In this document: in pieces, positions 9,681-25,482 of the stretch
How positions within the stretch are numbered: position 1 is the first letter of the stretch
How the letters are laid out: the number at the start of each line of letters is the position of its first letter
Assembly (NCBI GenBank): GCA_964349165.1
Contig: CAYGFL010000001.1
Span: 1-41,334, forward strand
Direction: 5' to 3'
From: an uncultured Candidatus Saccharibacteria bacterium
GTDB lineage: Bacteria; Patescibacteriota; Minisyncoccia; Phycocordibacterales; PALSA-1337
Length of the DNA stretch: 41,334 nt
Notes under the pieces: model-generated
Seen by the model: the letters and a program-made list of their open reading frames with translations, nothing else
Told to the model about the DNA's origin: nothing
Databases searched by the model: none
Made by a program: the position numbers and the translations under genes

Positions 9681-10433
9681 CTATTTTTTACAGACAAAAA
9701 TAAAAGAGGCGGGCATTTTCTCAGCCTTTTCGATCGAATAATATTTTCCTGGGTCTTTAAAACCATGATTAAGGTTATTTGGTTTAGGTTCATGGTAACC
9801 AATAACCTCAAATCCAGCGTTTCGTAAAAGAGTAAACCATGTCGAAGTTTTTCTATATGCAATATATACTTGCGTCCCATCTTTTTTCCAATTCCTGATA
9901 AGTCTAGGTTTCTCATCATGGTATGAGTGTGAAATGACATACTTATCATTTTCATATCGTATATTGCTGAAGATACCATGATCCCAACTCCAGATGAATA
10001 ATCCCCCCGGCTTGAGATAAGAGTAAATATTTTTAAGTGTAGCCTCTGGATCATATGTCCAGCCGATTCCATAAATGGAAAATACAATATCAACAAATTC
10101 AATATCTAATTTTAACTCCATTTTTCCATTAATAAGTTTAACCTTACCACTTTCAATTAAATCCGTATTGAATCTGCTGGCTTCTGCAATTTGGACTTTG
10201 GACATATCAAGACCATACACCTTTTTTGCCCCGTGATTGATTAGGTATTTTATTGATCTTCCGCTCCCGCAACCTATTTCAAGTAATACCTTACCCTCTA
10301 TATTAGAGAGTAAATTAAGATCATTTCCTATACCAAAAGGTCCCCATGTGGGCAATGAACACGCTTCTACAAATTGATCGGCGACCATATCCCAAGTCCT
10401 CTCATTTTCTCTAATAATATTATCTACAGACAT
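9681..10433 (-). CDS. Class I SAM-dependent methyltransferase
   Basis: Motif I VLLEIGCGSGRS, then VYGLDMS, post-I/II motifs. The ATG at 10433 was chosen because the upstream part of the ORF overlaps tRNA-Lys. The gene is very AT-rich. Confidence 0.75.
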   Translation of the reverse strand: MSVDNIIRENERTWDMVADQFVEACSLPTWGPFGIGNDLNLLSNIEGKVLLEIGCGSGRSIKYLINHGAKKVYGLDMSKVQIAEASRFNTDLIESGKVKLINGKMELKLDIEFVDIVFSIYGIGWTYDPEATLKNIYSYLKPGGLFIWSWDHGIFSNIRYENDKYVISHSYHDEKPRLIRNWKKDGTQVYIAYRKTSTWFTLLRNAGFEVIGYHEPKPNNLNHGFKDPGKYYSIEKAEKMPASFIFVCKK

Positions 10434-10436
10434 TTG

Positions 10437-10509
10437 TGCGCCTAGTTGGAATCGAACCAACGACCCACTCCTTAAAAGGGAGATGCTCTACCAACTGAGC
10501 TATAGGCGC
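10437..10509 (-). tRNA. tRNA-Lys (anticodon UUU)
   Basis: GCGCCTATAGCTCAGTTGGTAGAGCATCTCCCTTTTAAGGAGTGGGTCGTTGGTTCGATTCCAACTAGGCGCA. Full cloverleaf, anticodon loop CTTTTAA, T-loop TTCGATT. Confidence 0.9.
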
Positions 10510-10559
10510 ATAAGGGGGACACTGCGCAAGACTATACCATAGTCTTGCAAAACTTCAAT

Positions 10560-10919
10560 TTATAACGGCATGTCAAAAGCCAGAATACCAGGACCGAGGA
10601 CAAGAAGGGAAAGGGAAATGATGAAGAGAATGAAGTAGTAGTTCACACCGTCTGTGAAGAAAGATTTCATCTGAACCTTCCTCAATAATTTACAGAAAAA
10701 AACCACAACAGCAAAGAGCGCTGCAATCTGTGTATATAGACCGATGACAAGGAGGATACCAGCTACACCATCTAGAATACCCATAACAGTCATTCTGGCA
10801 TGTGACCTGCTCCTCAATTTATCATATGACCAGAAGATGAGAATGGCTCCGAGAGTGACACGTAGTATGAATGGCGCTATTTGTTCGTAAGTTAATAATG
10901 AAGGAAAAAGTGAAAGCAT
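10560..10919 (-). CDS. DoxX-family small membrane protein
   Basis: 119 aa from MLSLFPSLLTYEQIAPFILRVTLGAILIFWSYDKL. Four hydrophobic segments. The upstream 72 codons of the ORF overlap the divergent trmH-like gene and are discounted. Confidence 0.5.
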   Translation of the reverse strand: MLSLFPSLLTYEQIAPFILRVTLGAILIFWSYDKLRSRSHARMTVMGILDGVAGILLVIGLYTQIAALFAVVVFFCKLLRKVQMKSFFTDGVNYYFILFIISLSLLVLGPGILAFDMPL

Positions 10920-10954
10920 GTTGATGTTTAATTTAACTGATATATAGTGTCTGT

Positions 10955-11440
10955 ATGATATCACAAACCAAAGAGATCTGTCTCGCACTACACAATATCC
11001 GTAGTGTATACAATGTAGGCGCCATATTCCGCACGGCGGATGCCGTCGGAGTATCGAAAATATATCTCTGTGGCTACACTGGAGCGCCTGTAGATAGGTT
11101 CGGTAGAGCGAGGAAGGATATAGCAAAAGTGGCACTAGGAGCAGAGAAGACTGTGAAATGGGAGTCTGTGAAAGACATAGAAGAACTAATTTTAAAACTT
11201 AAAAAAGAAAAATTTACAATTCTTGCGCTGGAACAAAGTGCAAATTCAGTAGATTATAAAAAAGTAAAACTCGGTAAAAAGAATTTATTGATAGTCGGCA
11301 ATGAAGTGGGAGGTATTGAGAAGAAAATTTTAAATATGTGCGATTCTATTTTAGAAATACCGATGAAAGGGGAGAAGGAGTCGCTGAACGTCTCTGTCGC
11401 CACAGGGGTTGCATTATTTGGGATTGGTGGTAATCTTTAG
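10955..11440 (+). CDS. SpoU/TrmH-family RNA 2'-O-methyltransferase
   Basis: LHNIRSVYNVGAIFRTADAVG...LLIVGNEVGGIEKKIL...ILEIPMKGEKESLNVSVATGVALF (SPOUT knot motifs). Confidence 0.85.
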   Translation: MISQTKEICLALHNIRSVYNVGAIFRTADAVGVSKIYLCGYTGAPVDRFGRARKDIAKVALGAEKTVKWESVKDIEELILKLKKEKFTILALEQSANSVDYKKVKLGKKNLLIVGNEVGGIEKKILNMCDSILEIPMKGEKESLNVSVATGVALFGIGGNL

Positions 11441-11519
11441 CAGGTTCGTGATTCGGGTTTTGCAAGAGCAGGGCGGCAGGTGATTACATACTCGTGTGAG
11501 TGTGTCCTGCCGTCCTTTT

Positions 11520-12392
11520 TTATTTATCTAATTTTTGATGTACAGGACAATAGTGAGTCCCTCTGCCCGCTACAACAATACGCGCGATATATCCTTTGCA
11601 CCCAGATTTTCGACACTTCTCGCCTCTCCTCTGATATGCCTGATGTTGCTCTTGGAACTTTCCTCTTTTGCCATGAATGTTTCTGTAGTCTGACATAGAA
11701 TCTCCACCAAAATCTATACCTTTTTTCAAAACTGTTTTTATATCTACAAAAAGTTGTTTTAATTTGGCTTCTGGTATTTTATTAACAATCATCTCTGGAT
11801 GTATACCTGCACGCCAGAGACTCTCGTCTGCATAAATATTACCAATACCAGCGATAATAGCTTGATCTGTGAGAGTGGGTTTTATCTTTTTATCTTTTTT
11901 AATAAAAATTCTTTCTTGGAACTTGTCGAAAGTAAATTTCTTCTCTAGAGGTTCTGGTCCGATATCCTTGAGATGTGTAGATACATGAAGGGAATCGGTC
12001 GGGATAAGAGTTACTTTTGCAAACTTTCGAGCGTCGCATAACTCTATATTTTTACCATTTGAGAGATGCAAAATGAGATGTATAAAGCGATTGTACGGAT
12101 CACTTTTATCATAATCTCCATATAGAATATGACCAGTCATCTTCATGTGTATCAGTATTGTGAGGTTATCCGATAGATGGATAAGAACATTTTTAGCCCT
12201 ACGACTAACATGGGTGATTATTTTACCTTTTACTATTTTTTTAAAATAGAGAAAATATTTGGGATCTTTGATATTATCAGAACCTTTGTAATATGGACTT
12301 TTGTAATCTGTCCATACATCTATAACTTTTAGATTTCTTGCGACACCGTCCAATCCACTAGCTGTGGTTTGGACTTCTGGCAATTCTGGCAT
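11520..12392 (-). CDS. mutM: Formamidopyrimidine-DNA glycosylase (Fpg/MutM)
   Basis: N-terminal MPELPEV catalytic motif, H2TH region, C-terminal zinc finger CRKSGCKG...THYCPVHQ. Confidence 0.9.
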   Translation of the reverse strand: MPELPEVQTTASGLDGVARNLKVIDVWTDYKSPYYKGSDNIKDPKYFLYFKKIVKGKIITHVSRRAKNVLIHLSDNLTILIHMKMTGHILYGDYDKSDPYNRFIHLILHLSNGKNIELCDARKFAKVTLIPTDSLHVSTHLKDIGPEPLEKKFTFDKFQERIFIKKDKKIKPTLTDQAIIAGIGNIYADESLWRAGIHPEMIVNKIPEAKLKQLFVDIKTVLKKGIDFGGDSMSDYRNIHGKRGKFQEQHQAYQRRGEKCRKSGCKGYIARIVVAGRGTHYCPVHQKLDK

Positions 12393-12420
12393 ACAATTCT
12401 TATATCACACTTTCTTTCTA

Positions 12421-13701
12421 ATGAAAAATATATTAATAGCAATTTTTGTCACAGCAGTCCTTTGCACATTCTGGTTCGCAGGAAGTTATCCCAAAGCCTT
12501 TTACTATATCGACCTTGCTTACCAAAACGTAGGAGCCATCGTCGACGACACTCTCGTATATCTACAAGGCACCATAGCTGCTGTACTACTACACAAGCCT
12601 GTGACTGTCGCAGAACTACAGACGAAATACAATGCGCCCACACAGAAGAAAGTTCGAGTTCTCATAATCCCAGGACATGAGCCGAACTATGGTGGCACGG
12701 CTTTCAATGGACTCAACGAAAGGGAAATGAATGTAGAGCTCGCGAATAACCTGGCGGAATTTCTGAAGAATAATGGACACTATGACGTCATGCTCGCTCG
12801 CGATAATAACAATTGGAATCCGGTATTGTCCGAATATTTTAGAGTCCAGTGGGATGAGATAGTAGCCTTTTTCAAAGATAATAAAGAAGAGACTTTGCAC
12901 CTTGTGAATACGGGAAAAGTTACTGCGCCTGTTGCAAAAGTTTTCCATAACAAAGCTCGTAGTGATGTGGCGCTACGTCTGTACGGAATAAATAAATGGG
13001 AAAATGAAAATGCAGTCGACATCGCTATACATGTCCATTTCAATGATTACCCTAGAAAAAATGCCTCTGAACCCGGCAAACATTCTGGCTTCTCTATGTA
13101 TGTGCCAGAGAAGCAATACGCAAACAGTGTGACGACGAAAGCTATCGCCGAAAAAGTCTTCGTAAGATTGTCGAAATATAATGCTGTCAGTGACTTGCCA
13201 CAGGAGGATGCGGGAATAATAGAGGAGCCGGATCTCATCGCTATCGGTGCCTTCAACACGACGAACTCTGCTAGTATGCTCATAGAATATGGATATATTT
13301 ATGAACCACAATTTCACAACGAGGAAGTTCGACATAGTACGTTGCGAGACTTGGCTTTCCAGACATATCTAGGACTTCAAGATTTCTTCGGCAGTGGCAA
13401 CGATGTCTCTTTCGCCTACGATACTCTCATGCTCCCACATCTCTGGACAGGTGAGCTTTCTACAAAAAAGGCGGATGCTCGTGACGTACTAGCTCTGCAA
13501 TCGGCACTGCTACTCGATGGGCTTTATCCTGGAAATGGTAAGACAAAAAATGAATGTCCACGAACAGGCAGAATAGGTCCATGTACACTCGGAGCTATAG
13601 GGGCGTTTCAAAATAAATATGGAATAAAAGGTGAAGAGGGAATCGTGGGTGAAAAAACTAGAAAGATTCTCAATGAGAAGTATTCTGTGAAGACGATCTG
13701 A
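12421..13701 (+). CDS. N-acetylmuramoyl-L-alanine amidase (Amidase_3-like) with C-terminal PG_binding_1 domain
   Basis: N-terminal TM MKNILIAIFVTAVL. VLIIPGHEPNYGG...ELANNL...DIAIHVHFN. C-terminal VLALQSALLLDGLYPG...GAIGAFQNKYGIKGEEGIVGEKT. Confidence 0.65.
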   Translation: MKNILIAIFVTAVLCTFWFAGSYPKAFYYIDLAYQNVGAIVDDTLVYLQGTIAAVLLHKPVTVAELQTKYNAPTQKKVRVLIIPGHEPNYGGTAFNGLNEREMNVELANNLAEFLKNNGHYDVMLARDNNNWNPVLSEYFRVQWDEIVAFFKDNKEETLHLVNTGKVTAPVAKVFHNKARSDVALRLYGINKWENENAVDIAIHVHFNDYPRKNASEPGKHSGFSMYVPEKQYANSVTTKAIAEKVFVRLSKYNAVSDLPQEDAGIIEEPDLIAIGAFNTTNSASMLIEYGYIYEPQFHNEEVRHSTLRDLAFQTYLGLQDFFGSGNDVSFAYDTLMLPHLWTGELSTKKADARDVLALQSALLLDGLYPGNGKTKNECPRTGRIGPCTLGAIGAFQNKYGIKGEEGIVGEKTRKILNEKYSVKTI

Positions 13702-14866
13702 TTTTCTCTAGCTCCTCTCTCGCTATACGTGCATCATCCCAAGGTGTCTTCGTTCCTCGTGGTCCCATGATGTAGGGGTCTGTACCTTTGCCTGTGATGA
13801 GGACAACATCACCTTTCTGTGCTTTAGACATAGCTTCTCGGATGGCTTCTCGACGATCCATTATTATCTTTGGAGTTTTATTGACGATACCTTCTCTCAC
13901 ATCCGCAACTATTTTATCTGGATTTTCATCATAGGGATCTTCATCTGAGAGGATTATCTCATCACAATATGTATCGGCGATCTTTCCCATTTCTTTTCTT
14001 TTCCATGTGTCGCGTCCACCACCAGTTCCACCTAACACACAGATTTTTTTAGATTTTTTAAAAACTTTGTAAAGCTTTTCTAGAGAGTCTGTAGTGTGAG
14101 CGTAATCTACGACCACATCGAAATCCTGACCACATTTTACAAACTGCACTCTTCCTCTAATTTCTTTTAAATTAAGCACTGCCCGATTGATGATGTTATC
14201 GTCAATACCCAAGGTTCTAGCCAGAGTTACAGCTCCCAATACGTTGTATTTATTGAACTCTCCCAATAGGGAAGTCTCGGGTACAGTATCGCCCATACCG
14301 AATGTTTGCTGTACATCTACAGGGATAGCAAGAAATCTTTTACTCTCTGCATCATCTCTGTTCACCACTATTATCCTCGGCTTCTTTTTCGATATTGAAA
14401 GTTGTCTCGCGATATCTACCTTAGCTTCAATATAATTTTCATATGAGCCATGAGACTCTATATGTTCTGGAGAAAGATTTGTAAATATGAGAGCGTCCAA
14501 GTCTATGAATTTATGACGATATTGCGCTGAGCCTTGTGATGTCATCTCCATTATTACAAAATCACATTTTGCATTCACCGCTTTCCATAAAAATCTTTGG
14601 ATAAAAAAACGACCAGGCATAGACATCTTGTAGAGATTGTCTCTGGACTCATCACCAATTTTGAAACGGATGGTATTCGAAACAGCAGTTTTGTAACCAG
14701 CTTTTTCTAGTATTGAGTTTAATATTTCTGTTGTAGAACTTTTTCCTTTTGTCCCTGTCACTGCGATAACTTTTATCTTTCGTGAAGGGAAGCGGTAAAA
14801 TATTGTAGAGCCCATAGCCCAGAGGTAATGATATGTTTTGTAGAGTTTTTCCATTTTATTTTCCAA
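13670..14866 (-). CDS. murE: Mur ligase family protein, MurE-like (UDP-MurNAc-dipeptide/tripeptide ligase), no N-terminal domain
   Basis: VTGTKGKSST, MEMTSQG, FTNLSPEHIESHG, DYAHTTDSLEKL, GGTGGGRDTWKR, SDEDPYDENP. The start could be 14866 or 14854. Confidence 0.75.
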   Translation of the reverse strand: MENKMEKLYKTYHYLWAMGSTIFYRFPSRKIKVIAVTGTKGKSSTTEILNSILEKAGYKTAVSNTIRFKIGDESRDNLYKMSMPGRFFIQRFLWKAVNAKCDFVIMEMTSQGSAQYRHKFIDLDALIFTNLSPEHIESHGSYENYIEAKVDIARQLSISKKKPRIIVVNRDDAESKRFLAIPVDVQQTFGMGDTVPETSLLGEFNKYNVLGAVTLARTLGIDDNIINRAVLNLKEIRGRVQFVKCGQDFDVVVDYAHTTDSLEKLYKVFKKSKKICVLGGTGGGRDTWKRKEMGKIADTYCDEIILSDEDPYDENPDKIVADVREGIVNKTPKIIMDRREAIREAMSKAQKGDVVLITGKGTDPYIMGPRGTKTPWDDARIAREELEKIRSSSQNTSH

Positions 14867-15431
14867 GTATTTTTAGTGCCTCTTTTATTTTGTCATTTGT
14901 CTTCGTGAGAGTTTTCGGAATTTTTTTCAGAACATCTCGTGCTTCTGTCGGACTGTATCCCAGAGACTTCAGAGCTTCGAGTACATCTGCATCATTTTTC
15001 ATAGTCTGCTCTTGTTCTGGAGAGTGAGTCGTAGAGATCACCTTATCTTTCAACTCCATAACTATTTTTTCTGCGACTTTCTTCCCAATACCTGAAACTT
15101 TCGTCAGGTGAGCAGTCTCTCCAGTCTGGATGGCTGTTTCTAGAGAATGAACAGAGGCGACATTCAATATTCCCATAGCTGTCTTCGGACCGATGCCAGA
15201 TATCGTGATGAGTAATTCGAAAAAGTTTAGTTCTGCAAGAGAAATGAATCCATAAAGATCCAGAGCATTCTCTCGTACTGCAAGATACGTCCAGAGAGTG
15301 ACCGGCCCCTTTTTATCCAGTTTGACGAATATGTCTGGAGAGACGAAAACCTTGTAGCCGACACCCTGCACATCGAGAACGATGAACTTGGAGTCAGTAT
15401 GGGCTATAGAACCTGTAAGTCTGGATATCAT
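14856..15431 (-). CDS. ruvA: Holliday junction branch migration complex subunit RuvA
   Basis: MISRLTGSIAH...VLDVQGVGYKVFVS, HhH motifs ISGIGPKTAMGIL and VSGIGKKVAEKIV, C-terminal domain III. Confidence 0.9.
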   Translation of the reverse strand: MISRLTGSIAHTDSKFIVLDVQGVGYKVFVSPDIFVKLDKKGPVTLWTYLAVRENALDLYGFISLAELNFFELLITISGIGPKTAMGILNVASVHSLETAIQTGETAHLTKVSGIGKKVAEKIVMELKDKVISTTHSPEQEQTMKNDADVLEALKSLGYSPTEARDVLKKIPKTLTKTNDKIKEALKILGK

Positions 15432-15495
15432 AGGCTAATCATATACGAAACCTTGTGTTTTTTAAAGGCATGTGTTAATTTACACCTACACACAT

Positions 15496-15765
15496 ATGCC
15501 GATAACATCATCTGCAAAGAAAGCTCTCCGAGCAGGAGAAAGAAAGAGAGTACACAATCTCCGCACAAAGTCGGCTATCGATATTCCTATTAAGGCTTTC
15601 AAAAAGCTCGTTTCAGACAAAAAAATAGCGGAGGCAAAGGCCTTGGTCTCATCTATTTACAAGGCTCTCGATAAGGGTGCAAAAAGAAAATATATAAAGG
15701 CAAATACAGCATCTCGCTACAAGTCTCGCATAATGGCAGCGTTGAAGAGGGTGGAGGGAAAGTAA
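15496..15765 (+). CDS. rpsT: 30S ribosomal protein S20
   Basis: MPITSSAKKALRAGERKRVHNLRTKS... basic 89-aa protein. The ATG at 15496 lies within the longer ORF. Confidence 0.85.
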   Translation: MPITSSAKKALRAGERKRVHNLRTKSAIDIPIKAFKKLVSDKKIAEAKALVSSIYKALDKGAKRKYIKANTASRYKSRIMAALKRVEGK

Positions 15766-15790
15766 AAAAACCGGGATGACCGGTTTTTTT
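15764..15790. terminator. Intrinsic terminator after rpsT
   Basis: aaaaaaaccgg-gatga-ccggttttttt. Confidence 0.6.
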
Positions 15791-15799
15791 CTTAATCTG

Positions 15800-15871
15800 T
15801 GCTCCTGGTAGGAATCGAACCTACATTTCTCCCTTCGCAGGGGAGTGTCCTATCCATTGAACGACAAGAGC
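15800..15871 (-). tRNA. tRNA-Arg (anticodon GCG)
   Basis: GCTCTTGTCGTTCAATGGATAGGACACTCCCCTGCGAAGGGAGAAATGTAGGTTCGATTCCTACCAGGAGCA. Anticodon stem CTCCC/GGGAG, loop CTGCGAA. Confidence 0.9.
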
Positions 15872-15906
15872 GTCTGTATGCCTTCGTACATTAGCATGAC
15901 GTGAGA

Positions 15907-16365: not shown

Positions 16366-16613
16366 GGGGATATTATAGCATGAACCTTTTCCAAGTTAAT
16401 GGGGAATTACTACTCGGTTGACTTAATTATACTTCAATGATTAGATGTACCCATCATGCTTCTAACTAACTCGAAATCCATCTGGTCAGGTTTTTCCAAC
16501 TACGCACCTATTTTTTCTACGGAAAGGGTGTAGTGACTTTTGTATAAGAGTCAAAGACTGCCCTTTCCGGGGTAGTTTTGTTTACACATTAACAATCAAA
16601 AGGAGAAGGAAAA

Positions 16614-17436: not shown

Positions 17437-17461
17437 AGGAGCCTGACCAGCTCCTTTTTTA
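17437..17461. terminator. Intrinsic terminator between convergent genes
   Basis: aggagc-ctgacc-agctcct followed by TTTTTT. Confidence 0.5.
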
Positions 17462-17468
17462 ATTCCAA

Positions 17469-18050: not shown

Positions 18051-18104
18051 GTTTATTTATGTAAAAATTGATTTTAAATTTTGGCGGAGGACCGTTGGAC
18101 GCTG

Positions 18105-19013
18105 TTAAGGCTTGGTATGTAACAATGTCGCAATAAATGGAGATCCTGTGTCTAAGAGGGTAAAGGAACAGCCAGTTTTCTCTAATTCATCTATTAATGT
18201 TTCCTTGGTGTACCGAAGCGACTGGAATACAAGGAGTTTATCGTACTTTTTAATTCCAAGTGCGTCGAGCTCGGTGTTTGTGGTAAGTAGAGAGGTCCAG
18301 ACTTTTACGTCATCTGTCGCCTCGCGAGGGGTGAGATCCTTATCGGGATCGAGACCGATTAATTTTAATTTTTCATCTGCCATATGAACTGCATCAATCG
18401 CATAGGCTTGTTGTAGCTCAACCATGTTTGTACGGTCTCTCATGTGGGCATTTATAAAAACAAATCCGTTTTCGCCAGCAATATCTCGGAGTAGTTTTAT
18501 AATATCTTGCGGAGCATAATTTGAAAATGTTAGGCCAAGGCTTACAAAACGGGGAAGGGTGCTTTTCCCAAGCTTCTCAGCAAGTTCTTCGAAGGATGAT
18601 TGGATCGTTCGAACTGTAATTCCTTGCTGGGTAGCGTGCGTCTCAGCAAGTTCAAGATAGTCAGTATTAATGTCGATGGGAATGTAGGTAAATTTTTTCC
18701 CCTGCGCAGCAAGCTCATCAAAAAGGAATTGTTCCTTGTGTTCGGTACCTGGTCCGAGATCAATAAATTCAAAATTAGTAGGTAATTGAGTTGCCACATC
18801 TTTGGCGATCGAAAAAAGATATTCTCTCTCGGGTTTGGTGACGATTGTGTAGTATGGAGAATCGGTATTTTGGAGAGTTGCGTAATGGTCTACTTCAGAG
18901 GGAAGATAGAGTAAAAGAGAGTCACTGTAATCCCAATTTCCATCACTTATTTTTTTAATTGACTCAAATGCTCTCCTCTTAAACCATTCTTTGTTGTATG
19001 TTGCTTCAGGCAT
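18105..19013 (-). CDS. EgtD-like (Methyltransf_33) SAM-dependent methyltransferase, tentative
   Basis: FEFIDLGPGTEHKEQFLFDEL...YIPIDINTDYL...LGLTFSNY...LRYTKETLIDELEKTG. The only ATG downstream of the tRNA overlap is at 19013. Confidence 0.5.
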   Translation of the reverse strand: MPEATYNKEWFKRRAFESIKKISDGNWDYSDSLLLYLPSEVDHYATLQNTDSPYYTIVTKPEREYLFSIAKDVATQLPTNFEFIDLGPGTEHKEQFLFDELAAQGKKFTYIPIDINTDYLELAETHATQQGITVRTIQSSFEELAEKLGKSTLPRFVSLGLTFSNYAPQDIIKLLRDIAGENGFVFINAHMRDRTNMVELQQAYAIDAVHMADEKLKLIGLDPDKDLTPREATDDVKVWTSLLTTNTELDALGIKKYDKLLVFQSLRYTKETLIDELEKTGCSFTLLDTGSPFIATLLHTKP

Positions 19014-19018
19014 TTTTT

Positions 19019-19108
19019 TGGCGGATGGGGTGAGATTCGAACTCACGGCCCCCTTACGAGGGCGACGGTTTTCAAGACCGTTGCCTTAAACCACTCAGCC
19101 ACCCATCC
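19019..19108 (-). tRNA. tRNA-Ser (anticodon UGA), CCA encoded
   Basis: GGATGGGTGGCTGAGTGGTTTAAGGCAACGGTCTTGAAAACCGTCGCCCTCGTAAGGGGGCCGTGAGTTCGAATCTCACCCCATCCGCCA. Long variable arm. Confidence 0.9.
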
Positions 19109-19166
19109 TTGTGTTGAGATAATCTCACATTTTGCTTACATTTTCAACTTAGAGTACACTTTCCTC

Positions 19167-19544
19167 ATGAGACTTCTAGGAATTGACTACGGATCAAAGA
19201 GGGTAGGTATTGCTTTATCAGATGAAGCAGGACAGTTTGCCATACCCCTCGTTGTGCTGAATACACGAGAGAACCTGCTAGAGGAAATAGTAGATATTGC
19301 AAAGGAGAACAAAGTAATCAGTATAATAATAGGAGAATCAAAAAACTACAAAGGTGAACCAAATACTATAATGTCCGAAAGTATAAATCTCAAAAAAGAC
19401 CTAGAAACTAAAGGTTTCAAAGTTCATTTCGAACCAGAATTCATGACGAGCGCTCATGCCGAGAAATTGCAAGGAAAACATGATATGCTCGATGCATCAG
19501 CCGCCGCACTTATTTTACAAAGCTATTTAGATAAGAAAAAATAA
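19167..19544 (+). CDS. ruvX: Putative pre-16S rRNA nuclease / Holliday junction resolvase-like YqgF (RuvX)
   Basis: MRLLGIDYGSKRVGIALSD..., 125 aa. Confidence 0.85.
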   Translation: MRLLGIDYGSKRVGIALSDEAGQFAIPLVVLNTRENLLEEIVDIAKENKVISIIIGESKNYKGEPNTIMSESINLKKDLETKGFKVHFEPEFMTSAHAEKLQGKHDMLDASAAALILQSYLDKKK

Positions 19545-19545
19545 T

Positions 19546-19875
19546 ATGATAACAATCGAAGATTTTTCCAAAGTAGAAATCCGAGCAGGCAAGATACTAT
19601 CTGCAGAAAAAATTCCTGATACAGATAAGTTGCTCAAGCTCATGGTGGACCTCGCTGAACCTACACCGAGGCAGATCGTATCTGGTATTTCTCTGTATTT
19701 TCCTGATCCTGCTGTTCTCGTCGGAAAAACTGCAATGTTTGTAACAAATCTCGAGCCGAGGATGATAAAAGGGTACGAGAGCAACGGCATGCTCTTCGCG
19801 GTATCTACACCTGAAGGTAAATTCTCACTTCTCGAACCGAACCCAGATATACCACCTGGTACAAAAGCAAAATAA
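19546..19875 (+). CDS. tRNA-binding domain protein (CsaA/EMAP-II-like OB fold)
   Basis: FSKVEIRAGKILSAEKIPDTDKLLKLMVDL...QIVSGI...LEPRMIKGYESNGML. Confidence 0.8.
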   Translation: MITIEDFSKVEIRAGKILSAEKIPDTDKLLKLMVDLAEPTPRQIVSGISLYFPDPAVLVGKTAMFVTNLEPRMIKGYESNGMLFAVSTPEGKFSLLEPNPDIPPGTKAK

Positions 19876-19878
19876 AAT

Positions 19879-20511
19879 ATGACGCTCGTAGATATAATAA
19901 AAATATTACTCGATCCTCAAGAAGTAGTCGTAATCCTAGGACTTGTCGGTGTTATCGCAATTATTTTTGCAGAGACAGGACTCTTCTTCGGATTCTTTTT
20001 ACCTGGAGACTCACTACTTTTCACAGCAGGATTCCTGGCGTCACAGGATCTACTTCCACTTTTTCCACTTCTCGTAGGCACACTCATCGCGGCGATAGTG
20101 GGGGATAGTATAGGGTATTGGTTCGGGAAAAAGACTGGTCCAGCTATTTTCTCTCGAGAGGATTCATTTTTTTTTAGAAAAAAACATGTAGAAAGCGCAC
20201 GCGTCTTCTATGAAAAACACGGAAAGATGACTATTATACTTGCACGCTTCATACCTGTTATACGAACCTTTGCGCCGATAGTGGCAGGAGTCGCTAGTAT
20301 GAACTATCGAGTGTTCATTTCTTACAATATTATAGGTGGTTTCATCTGGACTATCGGACTGACGCTCACAGGATACTTCCTAGGACGAAGTATTCCAAGT
20401 GCAGACGCGTACCTTTTACCTATAGTATTACTCATAACTCTAGTCTCATTCATGCCGGGAATTGTACACATATTACGTGAAAGGAAAAATCGCAAAAATA
20501 TAGTACAATAG
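19879..20511 (+). CDS. DedA-family membrane protein
   Basis: GLFFGFFLPGDSLLFTAGFLA...GYWFGKKTG...HGKMTIILARFIPVIRTFAPIVAG. Confidence 0.85.
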   Translation: MTLVDIIKILLDPQEVVVILGLVGVIAIIFAETGLFFGFFLPGDSLLFTAGFLASQDLLPLFPLLVGTLIAAIVGDSIGYWFGKKTGPAIFSREDSFFFRKKHVESARVFYEKHGKMTIILARFIPVIRTFAPIVAGVASMNYRVFISYNIIGGFIWTIGLTLTGYFLGRSIPSADAYLLPIVLLITLVSFMPGIVHILRERKNRKNIVQ

Positions 20512-20536
20512 AGGACATAAGGTCACAAAAAGCGTT

Positions 20537-21541
20537 ATGTTCGCCCAAAAGTTTTTTACATTATTTCCTCCACCAGCTTTTTTAAATATTCCGTACGCCG
20601 GACTAGATATTTCTGATGACGCAGTGCGTTGTGTCGCACTCTCGAAAACCTCACATGGTATGGTGGTTCACCGTTTCGGTATGAAGCCTTTATCTAACGG
20701 AATAATGGAGGGTGGTGAGATAAAAGATCCGAAGGCTTTGTCGGAAACCATCACCGAACTTGTAAGAGAGCTAGGTGTGCATGTGGTGAAGGCTTCTCTA
20801 CCAGAAGAAAAGATGTACCTTTTCAAAACTACTGTGCCGAGCACAGATCAAAAGGAGATGCGTCAGAATATTGAGTTTAAACTTGAGGAAAATGTGCCAC
20901 TATCTAGAGCAGAATCCATTTTTTTCTTTGACCCTATTCCATCTATCTCGACCAATCTCGCTACACAAACAGGGACCACCGAAGACTTGGTAAGTGTATC
21001 CGTAGCTCCACGTAGCCTGGTGCTCTCATATTTAGAAACTATAAAATCTGCTGGCGTGACTGTGTTGTCTTTCGAGATGCAGGCGAAAGCTATCGCTCGA
21101 GCGCTGATCCCTACAGGTTCTAGAGATACAGAGATGATCGTGCATATTATGGATAATAAAACTGGTATATATATAGTCTGTGGTGGAGTAGTATGCTTCA
21201 CTTCCACCATTCCTTCTGGTTACAAGATGGCACTCGATGAAAAGAGCTCGCAAGTCGTGATAGATGAATTGAAAAAGAGTATTCGACAGGTCGAGAGCTA
21301 TTGGGTAGAGCATGGAAATGGTACAGCCGTCACAGGGGTCGTCTTTTCTGGACAAGGAGCAACGACAAATGGTCTCGTCTCCCAATGTTCCGCGAGTTTG
21401 TCTGGAACAGGTGACAACAAGATACGTTTCGATATCGGCAATGTCTGGCAGAACGCCTTTTCTTCTGACAGATACATTCCGCCGATTTCGTATGATGATT
21501 CACACGGATATGTGACTGCTGTAGGTCTAGCTCTACGATAA
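20537..21541 (+). CDS. pilM: Type IV pilus assembly protein PilM-like (actin-like ATPase fold)
   Basis: 334 aa. GLDISDDAVRCVAL N-terminus, gene order with two downstream bitopic proteins. Confidence 0.6.
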   Translation: MFAQKFFTLFPPPAFLNIPYAGLDISDDAVRCVALSKTSHGMVVHRFGMKPLSNGIMEGGEIKDPKALSETITELVRELGVHVVKASLPEEKMYLFKTTVPSTDQKEMRQNIEFKLEENVPLSRAESIFFFDPIPSISTNLATQTGTTEDLVSVSVAPRSLVLSYLETIKSAGVTVLSFEMQAKAIARALIPTGSRDTEMIVHIMDNKTGIYIVCGGVVCFTSTIPSGYKMALDEKSSQVVIDELKKSIRQVESYWVEHGNGTAVTGVVFSGQGATTNGLVSQCSASLSGTGDNKIRFDIGNVWQNAFSSDRYIPPISYDDSHGYVTAVGLALR

Positions 21542-21556
21542 ATATCAAAAGATAAA

Positions 21557-22114
21557 ATGATTCACTACACACTTTTACCAAGAGAAGAAATGAAGGAATT
21601 GCGCAAGGAATATCGCATCCGCCTTTTTATAATCACATCCTTCTTCTTCTCTATAGTTTTCATGTTCGGTATCATCGCTCTAATACCCTCGTATGTTTCG
21701 ACTCAACTTCAAGAAAAAGAATCCGTTGGTAGAAAAGAAGAACTTCAAAAAAACAGAAAGGCAAGTGGAGCAGACGAGATCGAGAAGGATCTCCTACAGA
21801 GTCAGGCTATTGCGAGCAGGATCGTCGCTCACGAAGACTCGACTACACACTCGAACATTATACAGAGCATAATCTCGTATCGATCGAGACAGATAACACT
21901 CTTGTCTTTCGAAGTCGCGAGGGCCACCGGTACCAGCACTCCCTGGACTGTGATAATCCAGGGCAAATCTGCCAGTCGAGAAGCACTTCTGGAGTTCAAA
22001 AAGGGACTAGAGAATAGCGCGCTCTTTTCACAAGTAGAACTGCCTCTATCAGATCTTGCGAAGAGCAAGAATATAGGCTTCAGTATAAGAGTAGTATTGC
22101 GCCAAAACAAATAA
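21557..22114 (+). CDS. pilN: PilN-like bitopic membrane protein
   Basis: 185 aa, single N-terminal TM (LFIITSFFFSIVFMFGIIALIP), position after pilM. Confidence 0.45.
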   Translation: MIHYTLLPREEMKELRKEYRIRLFIITSFFFSIVFMFGIIALIPSYVSTQLQEKESVGRKEELQKNRKASGADEIEKDLLQSQAIASRIVAHEDSTTHSNIIQSIISYRSRQITLLSFEVARATGTSTPWTVIIQGKSASREALLEFKKGLENSALFSQVELPLSDLAKSKNIGFSIRVVLRQNK

Positions 22115-22118
22115 TCAT

Positions 22119-22649
22119 ATGTATACCAACCACCGACATTATATACTCATAATCTTCGCAATCATCACTCTCGCTGTGTCTGTATTCGGATTTGTATTTC
22201 TTCGCGACCTCATATATTCGCGAGCCGTGACATCTGCTAAGATCGCTAGGGAAGTTAGCCAGATAGATGAACAGAATAAGCATGAGAGTGACATCACCAG
22301 CATATACGATAAATCATCCGAGCAGAGGAGGCTTCTCGATAGTTTCATCGTTCCGAAAGAGAAGATCGTAGACCTCATCGAATCTATAGAGAAGATAGGT
22401 GTGGATACATCTACAGATCTCGAGCTGTCTAGTATCACTAACCAAGAGTCGAAGGATGACAAGACGAGCCAATTCCAAGCGCACGTCGATGTAAAAGGGA
22501 CATGGACAAATATCATGCGCTCTCTCATACTCATAGAAGGATTGCCATATAGTGTGTCGATAAATAATACTCGACTCATAAAGTCTGGAGATTCCAAATC
22601 AAGCCAATGGGAGTTGTCTCTAGACTTGAGAGTCCTAACTGGAAAATAA
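22119..22649 (+). CDS. pilO: PilO-like bitopic membrane protein
   Basis: 176 aa, N-terminal TM (ILIIFAIITLAVSVFGFVFL) followed by a coiled-coil segment, position in the pil cluster. Confidence 0.4.
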   Translation: MYTNHRHYILIIFAIITLAVSVFGFVFLRDLIYSRAVTSAKIAREVSQIDEQNKHESDITSIYDKSSEQRRLLDSFIVPKEKIVDLIESIEKIGVDTSTDLELSSITNQESKDDKTSQFQAHVDVKGTWTNIMRSLILIEGLPYSVSINNTRLIKSGDSKSSQWELSLDLRVLTGK

Positions 22650-22660
22650 TATATACAAAT

Positions 22661-22951
22661 ATGCAGACGATAAAAATAATTAAAGAGATCGGACGCAACC
22701 CACATATTGATTGGGTATTTGTACTTTTCATAAGTCTGATTATTTTCGTCACACTTGGTTTTTTTAGCGTCACCCTTTACAAAGACGTAACTAACGGTAG
22801 TATTCAGGTTGGTGAAGTGCCTTCCAGCACTTCATTTAAAAAGATCAATGAAAAGACGATCACAGACGTTATAGAGAAGTTCTCTGATAAAGAGGAGTTG
22901 AGTCGAGAAGCGAGAAGGGGATATAGTGGTGAGACAGACCCTTCGATATAG
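22661..22951 (+). CDS. Small bitopic membrane protein, last gene of the pil cluster
   Basis: 96 aa from the ATG at 22661. TM WVFVLFISLIIFVTLGFFSVTL. Confidence 0.4.
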   Translation: MQTIKIIKEIGRNPHIDWVFVLFISLIIFVTLGFFSVTLYKDVTNGSIQVGEVPSSTSFKKINEKTITDVIEKFSDKEELSREARRGYSGETDPSI

Positions 22952-22985
22952 TATTCGTTGTAAGTTGAGTTAAGTCTTAGAAAAT

Positions 22986-23057
22986 GCCCTCGTAGTTCAA
23001 TGGATAGAACTGCGGACTTCTAAGCCGTCGATGTTGGTTCGATTCCAACCGAGGGCA
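22986..23057 (+). tRNA. tRNA-Arg (anticodon UCU)
   Basis: GCCCTCGTAGTTCAATGGATAGAACTGCGGACTTCTAAGCCGTCGATGTTGGTTCGATTCCAACCGAGGGCA. Loop CTTCTAA. One A31/G39 mismatch in the anticodon stem. Confidence 0.8.
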
Positions 23058-23062
23058 CAAAT

Positions 23063-23386
23063 ATGAGTAATCTAAATCTAAAAAATAATCCCACACTTGC
23101 TGATTTTCAGAACTATGTTGCAGAAATGGTAAAGGAACGTGGCTTTGATAAAGAAACAGTGCCGGAAATGTTTATGCTCTTTCTTGAAGAGTGTGGCGAG
23201 CTGGCGAAAGCGGTTCGAAAGACTCAGAATATACAGACTGATAAAAATTCGGAGAAGTTTAAGCTCGAAGGAGAGGCTGCCGATGTATTCATTTATCTTT
23301 TAGATATTTGTAATCACCTGGGTGTGGATTTGGAAAAGGCTTTTCGAGACAAAGAGGAAATCAACAAGAAGAGGTCTTGGGAATAA
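23063..23386 (+). CDS. MazG-like nucleotide pyrophosphohydrolase
   Basis: TLADFQNYVAEMVKERGF...LFLEECGELAKAVRK...EAADVFIYLLDICNHLGVDLEKAF. Confidence 0.8.
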   Translation: MSNLNLKNNPTLADFQNYVAEMVKERGFDKETVPEMFMLFLEECGELAKAVRKTQNIQTDKNSEKFKLEGEAADVFIYLLDICNHLGVDLEKAFRDKEEINKKRSWE

Positions 23387-23401
23387 CTGCTACTGCTCGA
23401 T

Positions 23402-24067
23402 TTACCTAATTATTAATTCCTTTAATCTCTCAATCCATCCTAAGATAGTAAGTTTAAGTTTTGTATCGCACACACAGATATCTAATGTCCCGAATGGGAG
23501 AGTCCTTCTCTTCTGCAGACTTGCCGAACTCGGCTTAGTATAAGTTTTATAGAATTGCTTCCTTGGTATGCCGGTAATATCCGACCAATATTTCTCTGTT
23601 TTTTCTATGTCCGCATGGGAGAAAGTATGAATGTGTCCGCGAAATTTATTTTCTGGGACCAGACATATTTCTCTTAAAAATCTCATCATTATTTGAATAA
23701 TTGACGGGTCACTATTTGCTATTGAAACTACTCCCTGACTCTTCTTCGCCCCTTCGCCTATATACAGAGCAATTCCTATGAGTTTTAATTCCTGTATTGA
23801 AATACCAGTGAAATCTTTCTTCGCATTATCCATCACCACCTTTCTTTTTGCACCTTCATTTGCAAGACGACTAGCCCTCCTTCTCTCTACTGATTCCACA
23901 CTCCTTCCTCTTTGTGATAATTTCCCCAGTTGCCTTTTTGTAAGTACAATATCCCGTACCCAGACACTTACGCTTGCCTTCGAAAAATTTAAAGCCTCAA
24001 CGATTTGATTAATCGAATATCCTTTTTTACGTAAAGCTCGAGCACGCTCTTTCTCAGCAAGTTTCAT
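23402..24067 (-). CDS. HTH plus LAGLIDADG-like (homing-endonuclease-like) protein, free-standing
   Basis: N-terminal resolvase-type HTH ARALRKKGYSINQIVEALNFSKASVSVW. Then LKLIGIALYIGEGAKK...VSIANSDPSIIQIMMRFLREI, resembling a single LAGLIDADG (GEG variant) core. Confidence 0.5.
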   Translation of the reverse strand: MKLAEKERARALRKKGYSINQIVEALNFSKASVSVWVRDIVLTKRQLGKLSQRGRSVESVERRRASRLANEGAKRKVVMDNAKKDFTGISIQELKLIGIALYIGEGAKKSQGVVSIANSDPSIIQIMMRFLREICLVPENKFRGHIHTFSHADIEKTEKYWSDITGIPRKQFYKTYTKPSSASLQKRRTLPFGTLDICVCDTKLKLTILGWIERLKELIIR

Positions 24068-24120
24068 TAGTAGAGTATATCATATATAATATATTCTATA
24101 TAGGTCTAGTAATTTTTACC

Positions 24121-24149
24121 TTGAGTTTTAGTATCCATTGGTGTATAAA
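24121..24149 (+). promoter_or_regulatory. Putative promoter of the tRNA-Val / rluA-like / rplS / tRNA-Leu / tRNA-His unit
   Basis: TTGAGT (24121-24126), 17-nt spacer, TATAAA (24144-24149), 10 nt before tRNA position 1. Confidence 0.45.
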
Positions 24150-24159
24150 TACCCTGTAT

Positions 24160-24232
24160 GCGCCCTTAGCTCAGTTGGTAGAGCAGCCGCTTTACACGCG
24201 AATGGTCGGGGGTTCGAGTCCCTCAGGGCGCA
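24160..24232 (+). tRNA. tRNA-Val (anticodon UAC)
   Basis: GCGCCCTTAGCTCAGTTGGTAGAGCAGCCGCTTTACACGCGAATGGTCGGGGGTTCGAGTCCCTCAGGGCGCA. Good acceptor, D and T arms. The anticodon stem has only 3 Watson-Crick pairs (27:43 and 28:42 mismatched). Confidence 0.7.
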
Positions 24233-24234
24233 CA

Positions 24235-25005
24235 ATGGATGTTTCTATGAAAATCCCTATTCTCTACGAAGATAAAGATATCCTCGCGGTCGACAAACCT
24301 GCAGGTTTGGTCGTGCATCCAGACGGTAAGACGAAAGAGCCAGCACTCACAGACTGGATATTAGAAAATTATCCAAAGACGAAAAATGTCGGTGAAGTCA
24401 TCGAAACAAAAGAAAATGGGACAATACAGAGACCCGGAATAGTTCATCGTCTCGACAGAGGAACTTCTGGCGTGCTTCTCATTGCAAAAACAAAGAAGGG
24501 TCACGAAACTCTCAAAGAACAATTTCAAAACCAGCTTATCAAAAAAAAGTATTACGCGTTTGTGCATGGAGATATGAAAGAGACATACGGGATCATCGAT
24601 AAGCCGATAGGGAAGAGTCCGCGAGACTTCCGTAGATGGTCCGCAGGACGTGGAGCGAGAGGAGAGATGAGGCCAGCAGAGACATGGTGGACACTGTTGT
24701 GTTACGAACGAGGGGTTGGTGGAGGATATTCTTTTGTAGAGATAGAACCGAAGACCGGTCGCACTCACCAGATCCGTGTCCATTTCAAGGCTGTACAGCA
24801 CCCTGTAGCTTGCGATGAACTATATGCGAGAGATAAGGGTTGCGAGTTGGGATTAGAGAGAACTGCTCTGCACGCTTCATCTATAACATTTACGAATTGC
24901 CTTGGCAAAAAAGTGACAGTGAAGTCTCCATTGCCGAAAGACTTTATAAAAGCGTTGAAAGACCTCCATATGACAGAAGTTGCTAAAAAGAAGGGCGTAT
25001 GTTAG
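24235..25005 (+). CDS. RluA-family pseudouridine synthase (no S4 domain)
   Basis: ILYEDKDILAVDKPAGLVVHP, HRLDRGTSGVLLIAKT, GRTHQIRVH. Start at 24235 or 24247. The upstream ORF portion is the tRNA-Val gene. Confidence 0.85.
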   Translation: MDVSMKIPILYEDKDILAVDKPAGLVVHPDGKTKEPALTDWILENYPKTKNVGEVIETKENGTIQRPGIVHRLDRGTSGVLLIAKTKKGHETLKEQFQNQLIKKKYYAFVHGDMKETYGIIDKPIGKSPRDFRRWSAGRGARGEMRPAETWWTLLCYERGVGGGYSFVEIEPKTGRTHQIRVHFKAVQHPVACDELYARDKGCELGLERTALHASSITFTNCLGKKVTVKSPLPKDFIKALKDLHMTEVAKKKGVC

Positions 25006-25466: not shown

Positions 25467-25482
25467 TGTATAATTGGAACAT

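Follow-up and report, generated by a model that had tools for sequence, protein, structure and literature searches.

Four protein-coding genes in the window considered here (the whole analysed stretch of 41,334 nt) begin only a few nucleotides past the 3′ end of a tRNA gene on the same strand, which raises the question of how their messages obtain a translatable 5′ end. The host is a Parcubacteria (CPR) bacterium with a tiny, 523-kb genome, among the smallest within its genus, and its 95%-complete assembly contains 29 tRNA genes.

tRNA genes directly in front of start codons

In this analysis, tRNA ends were placed by ARAGORN and Rfam, downstream ORFs were identified by Pfam, and genes were called with our own ORF heuristic, without a trained gene finder. 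The four junctions listed in a previous, sequence-only reading of this DNA were all recovered by ARAGORN, Rfam and direct reading of the junction sequences. Genome-wide, six of the 29 tRNAs abut a real gene, four in the window and two on contig C14, and all six genes open with ATG, 0–5 nt past the tRNA gene.

Two of the window's junctions lie on the minus strand. The tRNA-Lys(UUU) gene (10437..10509) has no encoded CCA and ends with its discriminator A at 10437; the 3-nt spacer CAA (10434..10436) leads to the ATG at 10433 of a class-I SAM methyltransferase gene (9681..10433; 250 aa; Pfam), whose N-terminus matches that of its orthologue in genome G007, with a start at most two residues away. 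The tRNA-Ser(UGA) gene (19019..19108) has its discriminator G at 19022 and an encoded CCA (19021-19019). It is followed by AAAAA (19014..19018), which places the ATG at 19013 of a Methyltransf_33 (EgtD-type) methyltransferase gene (18105..19013; 302 aa; Pfam) 5 nt past the CCA and 8 nt past the discriminator. The latter start had been called robust, and rightly so: the first ~50 codons hold no other in-frame start, and the Pfam domain runs from residue 54 on. No homologue of this accessory gene was found in 40 relatives.

On the plus strand, tRNA-Arg(UCU) (22986..23057), without encoded CCA and with its discriminator at 23057, is separated by CAAAT (23058..23062; 5 nt) from the ATG at 23063 of a MazG-like NTP pyrophosphohydrolase gene (23063..23386; 107 aa; Pfam MazG). 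The same confidence in this start is borne out by a 93%-identical orthologue in genome G032, which opens with the same MSNLNLK. The tRNA-Val(UAC) gene (24160..24232), also without encoded CCA and with its discriminator at 24232, is followed by the 2-nt spacer CA (24233..24234) and the first ATG (24235) of an RluA-family pseudouridine synthase gene (rluA, 24235..25005; Pfam PseudoU_synth_2). Since RluA orthologues begin at MKI.ILYED, which corresponds to the second ATG (24247), the leader would measure either 2 or 14 nt. On contig C14, the last base of the CCA encoded in tRNA-Tyr doubles as the first base of the start codon of a class-IV aminotransferase gene (CCATG), and tRNA-Leu(CAA) is followed by CAAT and the ATG of miaA, with the MiaA P-loop at residues 10–17. 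For every abutted tRNA, tRNA-Lys(UUU) included, the assembly contains no second gene with the same anticodon, so that the 3′ end of this tRNA must be matured.

Promoter-like sites lie directly 5′ of the tRNAs according to a consensus scan, and a general −10 peak is seen upstream of tRNAs. On the minus strand, a site inferred as TTGAAG-16-TATAGT (10531..10558), with TG before the second hexamer, lies ~21 nt 5′ of tRNA-Lys, and a putative TTGAAA-17-GATTAT (19119..19147), likewise with TG, lies 10 nt 5′ of tRNA-Ser. On the plus strand, tRNA-Arg(UCU) has a putative TTGAGT-18-TATAGT (22898..22927) within the terminal part of the last pilus-cluster ORF and a second TATAGT at 22946-22951. The −10-like hexamer TATAAA (24144..24149) lies 10 nt 5′ of tRNA-Val, and two relatives (L010 and L011) retain its motif GTATAAAT in the corresponding position. 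In correction of the earlier reading, the tRNAs have promoter-like sites of their own, which make the proposed embedding in operons unnecessary. Terminator hairpins are found directly 3′ of stand-alone tRNAs, such as tRNA-Arg(GCG) on the minus strand (15800-15871, ARAGORN), which is followed by a hairpin and T-run (flank AAAAAAACCGGTCATCCCGGTTTTTTT; whole unit 15764..15871). In contrast, no such hairpins stand behind the abutted tRNAs.

Leaderless-type promoters and their interchange with tRNAs

Upstream of ~490 long ORFs of this genome, SD-like tetramers show no peak. For TANNNT hexamers there is a sharp maximum at −12, 6 nt 5′ of the ATG, where 81 genes have one and the background is ~15–20. 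Five other genomes of the order likewise lack SD enrichment and have the −10 hexamer peak. Leaderless mRNAs are therefore the default here. In seven genomes of the same genus, the 16S rRNA terminates in ...GGATTATTTCAA in place of GGATCACCTCCTTA, and thus lacks the anti-SD; the one of G034, from another family, has GGAATTCTTCC. As the organism's own 16S gene is missing from the assembly, we infer the absence of the anti-SD from these congeners. Anti-SD loss has been described in a Parcubacteria subgroup (Tsurumaki et al. 2022, PMC9297842).

An abutting tRNA and a leaderless-type promoter appear interchangeable in front of orthologues when their upstream sequences are compared. The MazG gene is tRNA-abutted here, while its G032 counterpart stands behind TAGAAT, 6 nt and ATG; similarly, the G007 orthologue of the class-I methyltransferase gene is preceded by TAAAAT and 7 nt. 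The aminotransferase gene of the CCATG junction starts with GTG in G034, behind tRNA-Gly(GCC) and CCT; in another four genomes it is preceded by a −10 hexamer at position −12. The same holds for core genes. The rluA gene (39 of 41 genomes) is tRNA-abutted in 5 of 30 loci, one other family included; in other loci it stands behind a −10 hexamer at position −12 to −14. Upstream of miaA (41 of 41 genomes), tRNA-Leu(CAA) lies at 1–4 nt in 10 of 30 related loci, which belong to families f1, f3 and f4, and at 10–16 nt in four; the remaining loci show TACAGT or TACATT, 7 nt and ATG.

The frequency of the junctions, previously described as striking, is not exceptional: in this genome, spacings of ≤5 nt occur in 6 of 21 tRNA→CDS pairs and in 107 of 333 CDS→CDS pairs, so that compaction alone accounts for it. 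The genome-wide check of spacings nevertheless revealed a distribution of different shape. The tRNA→CDS gaps run 2, 2, 3, 4, 5 and 8 nt, with none thereafter below 25 nt. Among 0–50-nt gaps pooled from six genomes, those of 9–24 nt make up 16% after tRNAs versus 35% between CDSs (chi-square p = 0.02, a rough figure, as the pooled genomes are kin). Intermediate spacers of 13, 13, 16, 18 and 22 nt occur in relatives, and a near-terminal AUG is thus no absolute rule.

The tRNA as a possible excisable leader

We consider it probable (roughly 0.65) that a promoter 5′ of each tRNA gives rise to a tRNA–mRNA co-transcript, from which tRNA 3′ maturation frees a near-leaderless mRNA. Most likely, tRNA excision makes the translatable message end, much as in mitochondria. 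The tRNA and the abutting protein gene would then form one transcription unit, with the promoter directly 5′ of the tRNA and the tRNA itself as a 5′ leader that can be cut out. RNase P would cut the tRNA 5′ end, an endonuclease other than canonical RNase Z would cut at or within ~2 nt of the 3′ end, and the CCA-adding enzyme would finish the tRNA; genes for RNase P RNA, rnpA and the CCA-adding enzyme were found in the genome. The downstream fragment would be the mRNA, with its AUG 0–5 nt from a 5′-monophosphate end. Ribosomes would load it via the 5′-end-dependent (leaderless) route, given a lineage without SD/anti-SD pairing whose mRNAs normally start at AUG. Over their first 40 nt, the six mRNAs (mean about −2.5 kcal/mol, versus −4.9 for internal windows) have as little structure as promoter-type leaderless genes.

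The enzymology speaks against this mechanism in part. For canonical RNase Z, the enzyme named in the sequence-only reading, neither this 95%-complete genome nor 61 genomes from 61 families of the order yielded a hit above the family threshold. The idea that mRNAs with 2–5-nt leaders are read as leaderless fares better and has indirect support, as it fits the lineage default and the orthologue interchange, but it loses the enzyme assigned to it. RNase E/G and RNase Y were likewise looked for and not found, which leaves the 3′ cut with no assigned enzyme. Should tRNA 3′ ends arise by exonucleolytic trimming from a cut within the mRNA, the message would be destroyed rather than created. In addition, RNase J, with its 5′–3′ exonuclease activity, is encoded in the genome, and a 5′-monophosphate end is its substrate.

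Alternatively, the precursor, unprocessed or processed at its 5′ end, could be translated by internal SD-independent initiation at an A-rich, unstructured start (Kozak-like or S1-assisted, as in Bacteroidota), with tRNA 3′ maturation as a competing fate of the transcript instead of an enabling step. The spacers are indeed rich in A/C and free of G (CAA, AAAAA, CAAAT, CA, CAAT), the coding starts are unstructured, operon-internal genes of this genome must likewise start without SD, and relatives have intermediate spacers of 10–22 nt. SD-independent initiation in A-rich contexts is described for Flavobacterium (PMC6847099). We nevertheless regard internal initiation as unlikely, because 9–24-nt spacers are depleted after tRNAs and not after CDSs, and single-copy tRNAs need release in any case. 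Moreover, the 30S subunit must hold the mRNA single-stranded around the start in its mRNA channel, and the stable 7-bp acceptor stem ends 1–6 nt from the AUG, within the stretch held. Another, rather improbable view is that the junctions arose neutrally as deletions compacted the genome, the genes being accessory or weakly expressed, their layout unselected and their expression incidental. It draws on the small genome, on the equal share of tight junctions after CDSs and on the non-significant excess of tRNA abutment over relatives (6/29 versus 8/102; Fisher p = 0.08). The four window junctions are, furthermore, species-specific (relatives have 25–65-nt spacers or lack the gene), and the MazG-like and EgtD-like genes are patchily distributed. 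However, the tRNA-Leu(CAA)–miaA abutment is kept across three families, miaA and rluA are core genes, and the bimodal spacer distribution argues for constraint. Compaction would also explain the origin of the layout and not gene expression, and is compatible with processing of a co-transcript.

A promoter inside the tRNA gene could start transcription at the ATG and yield a classical leaderless transcript with no need of tRNA processing; leaderless promoters are the norm in this genome, and in the relative L268 the short gap behind tRNA-Leu holds TAAAAT, followed by 6 nt and the ATG of miaA. At the six junctions, though, positions −14 to −7 are G+C-rich acceptor stem (CTAGGC, CCGCCA, GAGGGC, TCAGGG, CGGCGC, CTTCGG), none of which fits TANNNT, making such promoters very improbable. 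Practically negligible is the proposal that acceptor-stem purines serve unprocessed transcripts as a Shine-Dalgarno element, for which GAGGG of tRNA-Arg, 7 nt 5′ of the MazG ATG, had been cited: it is refuted by the anti-SD loss in the congeners together with the missing SD enrichment here and in the five other genomes, and the purines are base-paired within the stem. The abutment might also be an integration scar of mobile elements that brought genes to tRNA 3′ ends. Of 41 genomes, this one alone has the EgtD-like gene; the MazG-like gene shares 93% identity with a copy from another family, as against ~50% for the neighbouring rluA; and an HTH/LAGLIDADG-like ORF adjoins MazG. Yet no duplicate of the six tRNA 3′ ends was detected on their contigs (18–25 nt, 1–2 mismatches allowed), Pfam scans of the neighbouring ORFs tested gave no integrase, and the core genes miaA and rluA share the layout, so that we give this origin hardly any credence.

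Relation to known systems

In the literature, we found no published description of such tRNA-abutted starts in bacteria. The closest parallel is the tRNA punctuation model of animal mtDNA, reportedly put forward by Ojala, Montoya and Attardi in 1981, a work cited in PMC4633059. In both cases tRNA genes abut protein genes in a reduced genome, SD and anti-SD are lacking, and excision would set mRNA 5′ ends with a leader of zero to a few nucleotides. Unlike in mitochondria, a tRNA leads only 6 of ~500 genes in this bacterium, every tRNA seems to be served by a separate promoter and not to form part of a genome-length polycistron, tRNAs do not set the 3′ ends of mRNAs, no RNase Z/ELAC2-type enzyme was found, and processing is putative. 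Co-transcription of tRNA and mRNA is known from the E. coli thrU-tyrU-glyT-thrT-tufB operon, in which a protein gene downstream of tRNAs is transcribed from the tRNA promoter; there, tufB has a long spacer that includes an SD of its own, is translated canonically and needs no processing for its start codon to be accessible. Endonucleases that make mRNA ends or leaderless status post-transcriptionally act at plant mitochondrial t-elements, which are non-decoding tRNA mimics, and in the form of E. coli MazF, a stress toxin whose cleavage generates leaderless mRNAs with 5′-OH ends. The tRNAs considered here are sole functional genes and not mimics, and the proposed end is a 5′-monophosphate; PMC3848588 includes a discussion of MazF.

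Promoter-derived leaderless mRNAs of Actinobacteria and Deinococcus (e.g., PMC4633059, PMC4007540, PMC3848588) share SD-independent, 5′-end-dependent initiation at a terminal AUG, and in this bacterium, too, a −10 hexamer ~6–7 nt 5′ of the start codon is the default throughout the genome. The six genes differ in lacking this element, and a 5′-P from processing would replace the 5′-PPP of initiation. Propionibacterium acnes, as studied by Lin et al. (2013, PMC3848588), is likewise rich in leaderless mRNAs and without tRNase Z; the majority of its tRNA genes are transcribed singly, and the study reports no tRNA-abutted start codons. Its unusual tRNA 3′ processing, by an endonuclease that cuts within or a few nucleotides past the tRNA 3′ end, sets a precedent for the 3′ cut postulated in the present case.

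Layout of the tRNA junctions and their spacing

ARAGORN places seven tRNA genes in the window, six of which were confirmed with identical ends by the Rfam tRNA model. On the minus strand, the discriminator A of tRNA-Lys(UUU) at 10437 is followed by CAA and the ATG of a class-I methyltransferase gene at 10433, and tRNA-Ser(UGA), with its discriminator G at 19022 and an encoded CCA running to 19019, is separated by AAAAA from the ATG of an EgtD-type gene at 19013. tRNA-Arg(UCU) ends at 23057 and is linked by CAAAT to the ATG of a MazG-like gene at 23063; tRNA-Val(UAC) ends at 24232, and a CA dinucleotide precedes the ATG of a gene for an RluA-family pseudouridine synthase at 24235. Direct reading of the sequence, combined with the ARAGORN and Rfam ends, bears out all four junction coordinates of the sequence-only reading, and its four downstream ORFs proved to be genuine genes (class-I methyltransferase, Methyltransf_33 of the EgtD type, MazG-like, and RluA-family pseudouridine synthase). 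The two starts it had called robust also stand: the EgtD-like gene has no other in-frame start within its first ~50 codons, the Pfam match starting at residue 54, and the 93%-identical MazG-like orthologue in G032, a genome of another family, opens with the same MSNLNLK. The N-terminus of the methyltransferase orthologue in the related genome G007 lies within two residues of the start found here. RluA orthologues open at MKI.ILYED, corresponding to the second ATG here (24247), so that the rluA leader is either 2 or 14 nt long.

Two further junctions are located on contig C14 of the same assembly (523 kb in 30 contigs, rated 95% complete, with the window as contig 1). In the first, tRNA-Tyr leads a class-IV aminotransferase gene, and the encoded CCA and the ATG have an A in common (CCATG). 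In the second, tRNA-Leu(CAA) is followed by a CAAT spacer and the ATG of miaA, whose product carries the P-loop GPTATGKS at residues 10–17. Genome-wide, 6 of 29 tRNA genes thus abut a real gene, and the tRNA-led genes are six among ~500 ORFs (~1% of genes), the gene calls (~490 long ORFs) coming from a simple ORF heuristic. A 90-aa ORF that starts 10 nt past a tRNA-Ile(UAU) on contig C7 looks non-coding or spurious, and the pair was left out of this count.

As the ORFs are real, chance ATGs are not at issue; what matters is the spacing. The frequency of tight junctions, previously described as striking, is not raised: 6 of 21 tRNA–CDS pairs in this genome compare with 32% of same-strand CDS–CDS pairs at ≤5 nt. 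The distribution does differ in shape from that of CDS–CDS gaps. Counted from the discriminator, the gaps in this genome are 2, 2, 3, 4, 5, and 8 nt, the next being 25 nt, and spacers from 25 nt upward typically contain a −10 hexamer 6–8 nt ahead of the ATG. In six pooled genomes (this one, G019, G041, G034, G025, and G040, which are related, sampled, and not independent), gaps of 9–24 nt make up 16% of the 0–50-nt gaps after tRNAs versus 35% between CDSs, with p = 0.02 as a rough value given their kinship. Abutment was found for 8 of 102 tRNAs in the relatives versus 6 of 29 here, which is not significantly higher (p = 0.08). Non-CPR control loci, found via the RluA alignment, comprised only 14 tRNAs, too few for use.

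Initiation signals and promoters around the tRNAs

SD-like tetramers show no peak upstream of the ~490 long ORFs of this genome. TANNNT hexamers, which resemble −10 elements, show a sharp peak at −12 (6 nt ahead of the ATG), with 81 genes versus a background of 15–20; such a profile is characteristic of leaderless mRNAs beginning at the AUG. Two congeners and three other families of the order, each represented by partial genomes, showed the same combination of a missing SD and a −12 hexamer. The 3′ end of the 16S rRNA reads ...GCTGCTCGTGGATTATTTCAA in place of ...GGATCACCTCCTTA in 7/7 same-genus genomes (the 16S gene of this organism lies outside the assembly) and GGAATTCTTCC in G034, from another family, in agreement with Tsurumaki et al. 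2022, who reported the absence of the anti-SD motif in a subgroup of Parcubacteria (PMC9297842). Judging from the congeners' 16S rRNA, SD/anti-SD pairing is therefore not available in this lineage.

These data bear on two alternative explanations for the expression of the abutted genes. The proposal that purines of the acceptor stem serve as an SD is refuted by the lack of an SD peak in this and five other genomes together with the anti-SD missing from all seven congeners, and it was rejected; the purine-rich pairing with the 16S 3′ end typical of canonical SD-led initiation was not found. A promoter inside the tRNA gene is unlikely and was likewise rejected on the junction sequences, since the stretch from −14 to −7 is G+C-rich acceptor stem without TANNNT at all six junctions. 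The hexamer of promoter-derived leaderless genes is thus present genome-wide as the −12 peak and absent at these six sites. Over their first 40 nt, the six putative tRNA-led mRNAs have as little structure as promoter-type leaderless genes do.

Promoter-like sites occur just upstream of tRNA-Lys, tRNA-Ser, and tRNA-Arg, −10-like hexamers lie 8–10 nt ahead of tRNA-Val and tRNA-Leu(CAA), and a TANNNT peak is found at −16 to −14 upstream of tRNAs in general (n = 128). Embedding of the tRNAs in operons, as the sequence-only reading had it, is therefore not required. Stand-alone tRNAs (tRNA-Arg(GCG) in the window, tRNA-Phe) have a hairpin and T-run terminator directly 3′; none was found directly 3′ of the abutted tRNAs, and the tRNA–ATG spacers contain neither terminator nor promoter. 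At 25466–25483, the −10-like TGTATAAT overlaps the rplS stop codon 8 nt ahead of tRNA-Leu(GAG), which may thus have its own promoter rather than depend on read-through from rplS.

Orthologues of the tRNA-led genes in relatives

Across relatives, one and the same gene stands behind either an abutting tRNA or a leaderless-type promoter, that is, a −10 hexamer ~6–7 nt ahead of the ATG. The MazG-like gene of G032 is preceded by TAGAAT, 6 nt, and ATG, and the methyltransferase gene of G007 by TAAAAT, 7 nt, and ATG, 65 nt past the same tRNA-Lys. The aminotransferase gene lies 10 nt past tRNA-Tyr in the related genome G022 and starts with GTG behind tRNA-Gly(GCC) and CCT in G034; in four other genomes it is preceded by a −10 hexamer at −12. 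rluA is abutted in 5 of 30 loci, one of them from another family, with the spacers CA, CAG, CAG, CCA, and T; other loci have a −10 hexamer, or else tRNA-Val on the opposite strand together with a conserved leader. In seven congener loci with such a divergent tRNA-Val (L005, L007, L008, L012, L014, L015, and L017), a conserved stretch of ~35 nt, TTAGATTATCGTATATTG..ATTATCAAG, precedes the rluA start; it could represent a leadered promoter or have a regulatory role. No homologue of the EgtD-like gene was found among 40 relatives.

The strongest comparative case is provided by miaA. Of 30 loci, 10 (families f1, f3, and f4 of the order) have tRNA-Leu(CAA) at a distance of 1–4 nt upstream of the gene, most commonly in the form GGCA-CA-ATG, and four more (f1, f6, f8, and f17) have it at 10–16 nt; six of the other loci show TACAGT or TACATT, 7 nt, and ATG. 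The recurrence of the layout in independent assemblies rules out an assembly artefact. MiaA acts on tRNAs reading UNN codons, tRNA-Leu(CAA) included, so that the unit pairs a tRNA with its modifying enzyme. Compact and conserved, tRNA-Leu(CAA)-CA-AUG-miaA also offers a test substrate for studying unculturable organisms in vitro.

The MazG-like gene (23063–23386) shares 93% protein and 82% DNA identity with locus L112 of G032 (contig C8, 1501–1824), although that genome belongs to another family and the adjoining rluA is only ~50% identical between the two. Among 24 congeners searched, no close homologue was found, apart from one weak match (E = 1e-4). As the gene also occupies the tRNA-Arg/tRNA-Val interval in either genome, this pattern suggests recent lateral transfer into the interval. 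Antisense between the two tRNA-led units lies a 221-aa ORF (23402–24067, minus strand) with a weak resolvase-type HTH match and no counterpart in the G032 locus.

tRNA 3′ ends and the putative excision of tRNA leaders

The genome encodes RNase P RNA (109.6 bits, above the cut-off), rnpA, and a CCA-adding enzyme. The assumption that RNase Z processes the 3′ ends is not borne out, as TIGR02651 gave no match above the cut-off in this genome or in 61 genomes from 61 families of the order; its weak matches here are RNase J (594 aa) and a 449-aa β-CASP protein. Neither RNase Y nor RNase E/G was detected in this genome. Two 212-aa UPF0173 MBL hydrolases, encoded on contigs C5 and C12, are candidates for an RNA-processing role. 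The former (13579–14217, minus strand; PDB relative TM_1162) follows tRNA-Ser(GGA) (14233–14320) after 25 nt and has an apparent leaderless promoter upstream (TGCTAATAT); the latter is its paralogue. In P. acnes, which is rich in leaderless mRNAs and has no tRNase Z, endonucleolytic cuts within or just past tRNA 3′ ends were ascribed to an unidentified enzyme (PMC3848588). In the six genomes, C directly follows the discriminator in 124 of 131 tRNA genes (in the window at 10436, 23058, and 24233, for example); among the 131, full CCA is encoded in 36, CA after the discriminator in 73, and CAA in 41. This near-invariant C74 may be a determinant of 3′ processing or of RNase P in an order with no detectable RNase Z.

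The best-supported model, to which we assign a probability of about 0.65, is a promoter–tRNA–AUG co-transcript with putative excision of the tRNA. Promoter, tRNA, 0–5 nt, and AUG would form one unit of transcription; excision would leave a 5′-monophosphorylated mRNA with a near-terminal AUG, and this near-leaderless mRNA would be read by the lineage's default 5′-end-dependent initiation. The assembly contains no second gene for the anticodon of any of the abutted tRNAs, whose 3′ ends must therefore undergo maturation; should this step be endonucleolytic, the near-leaderless mRNA arises automatically. The main rival, SD-independent internal initiation on the unprocessed precursor, appears unlikely, given that the acceptor stem directly adjoins the AUG and that spacer lengths show a trough at 9–24 nt. 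Neutral genome compaction explains how the junctions arose and why they are as frequent as they are; it does not account for the expression of the abutted genes and is quite improbable as the full explanation. An integration scar left at the tRNA 3′ end by a tRNA-targeted genomic island is also unlikely and was set aside, as no direct repeat of the six tRNA 3′ ends on their contigs and no integrase among the neighbouring ORFs tested were found.

A broader version of the co-transcript model is put forward only tentatively: in this Parcubacteria order without anti-SD and RNase Z, tRNAs may serve as excisable 5′ leaders, an endonuclease cutting beside C74 to free both the tRNA and a near-leaderless mRNA. 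Candidates for this activity are the 449-aa β-CASP protein, RNase J, or a UPF0173 MBL hydrolase. On the excisable-leader reading, tRNA-Leu(CAA)-miaA would couple the synthesis of a tRNA to that of its modifying enzyme.

By analogy, the tRNA-led units would act like a combination of mitochondrial tRNA punctuation and bacterial leaderless translation. As in mitochondria, the tRNA gene adjoins a same-strand start codon at 0 to a few nt, and RNase P for the 5′ cut is present. In contrast, no RNase Z/ELAC-type enzyme was found here, tRNAs lead only ~1% of genes rather than most, and a separate promoter seems to serve each unit; for these reasons the units are not a member of the mitochondrial system. 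A full-text literature search found no description of tRNA-abutted leaderless-type bacterial genes, which does not by itself prove their absence. Hansen and Moran 2012 contains nothing on tRNA–CDS overlap (PMC3439896); where Shell 2015 and Romero 2014 touch on tRNA punctuation or leaderless mRNAs, the context is a different one.

If the model is true, bacteria with their own cells would have converged on the mitochondrial solution of making a translatable mRNA end by tRNA excision, and this solution would operate on a ribosome lacking the anti-SD. The annotation of starts, promoters, and operons in CPR genomes would change, and start predictors that expect an SD or bar starts beside tRNAs would fail there. 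A tRNA 3′ endonuclease would be missing from the picture in a whole order without RNase Z, with C74 as a possible determinant.

Some tRNA genes show unusual decoding features of their own. Contig C7 contains a tRNA-Ile whose UAU anticodon is encoded in the genome (23728–23802) and a tRNA called as Ser with the anticodon ACU (28992–29081). In G034, ARAGORN calls a tRNA with the anticodon UUA (‘tRNA-Stop’) at 271791–271863 of contig C1 (plus strand), which could be a suppressor-type or misread tRNA; it is followed by TA and the ATG of a 161-aa ORF.
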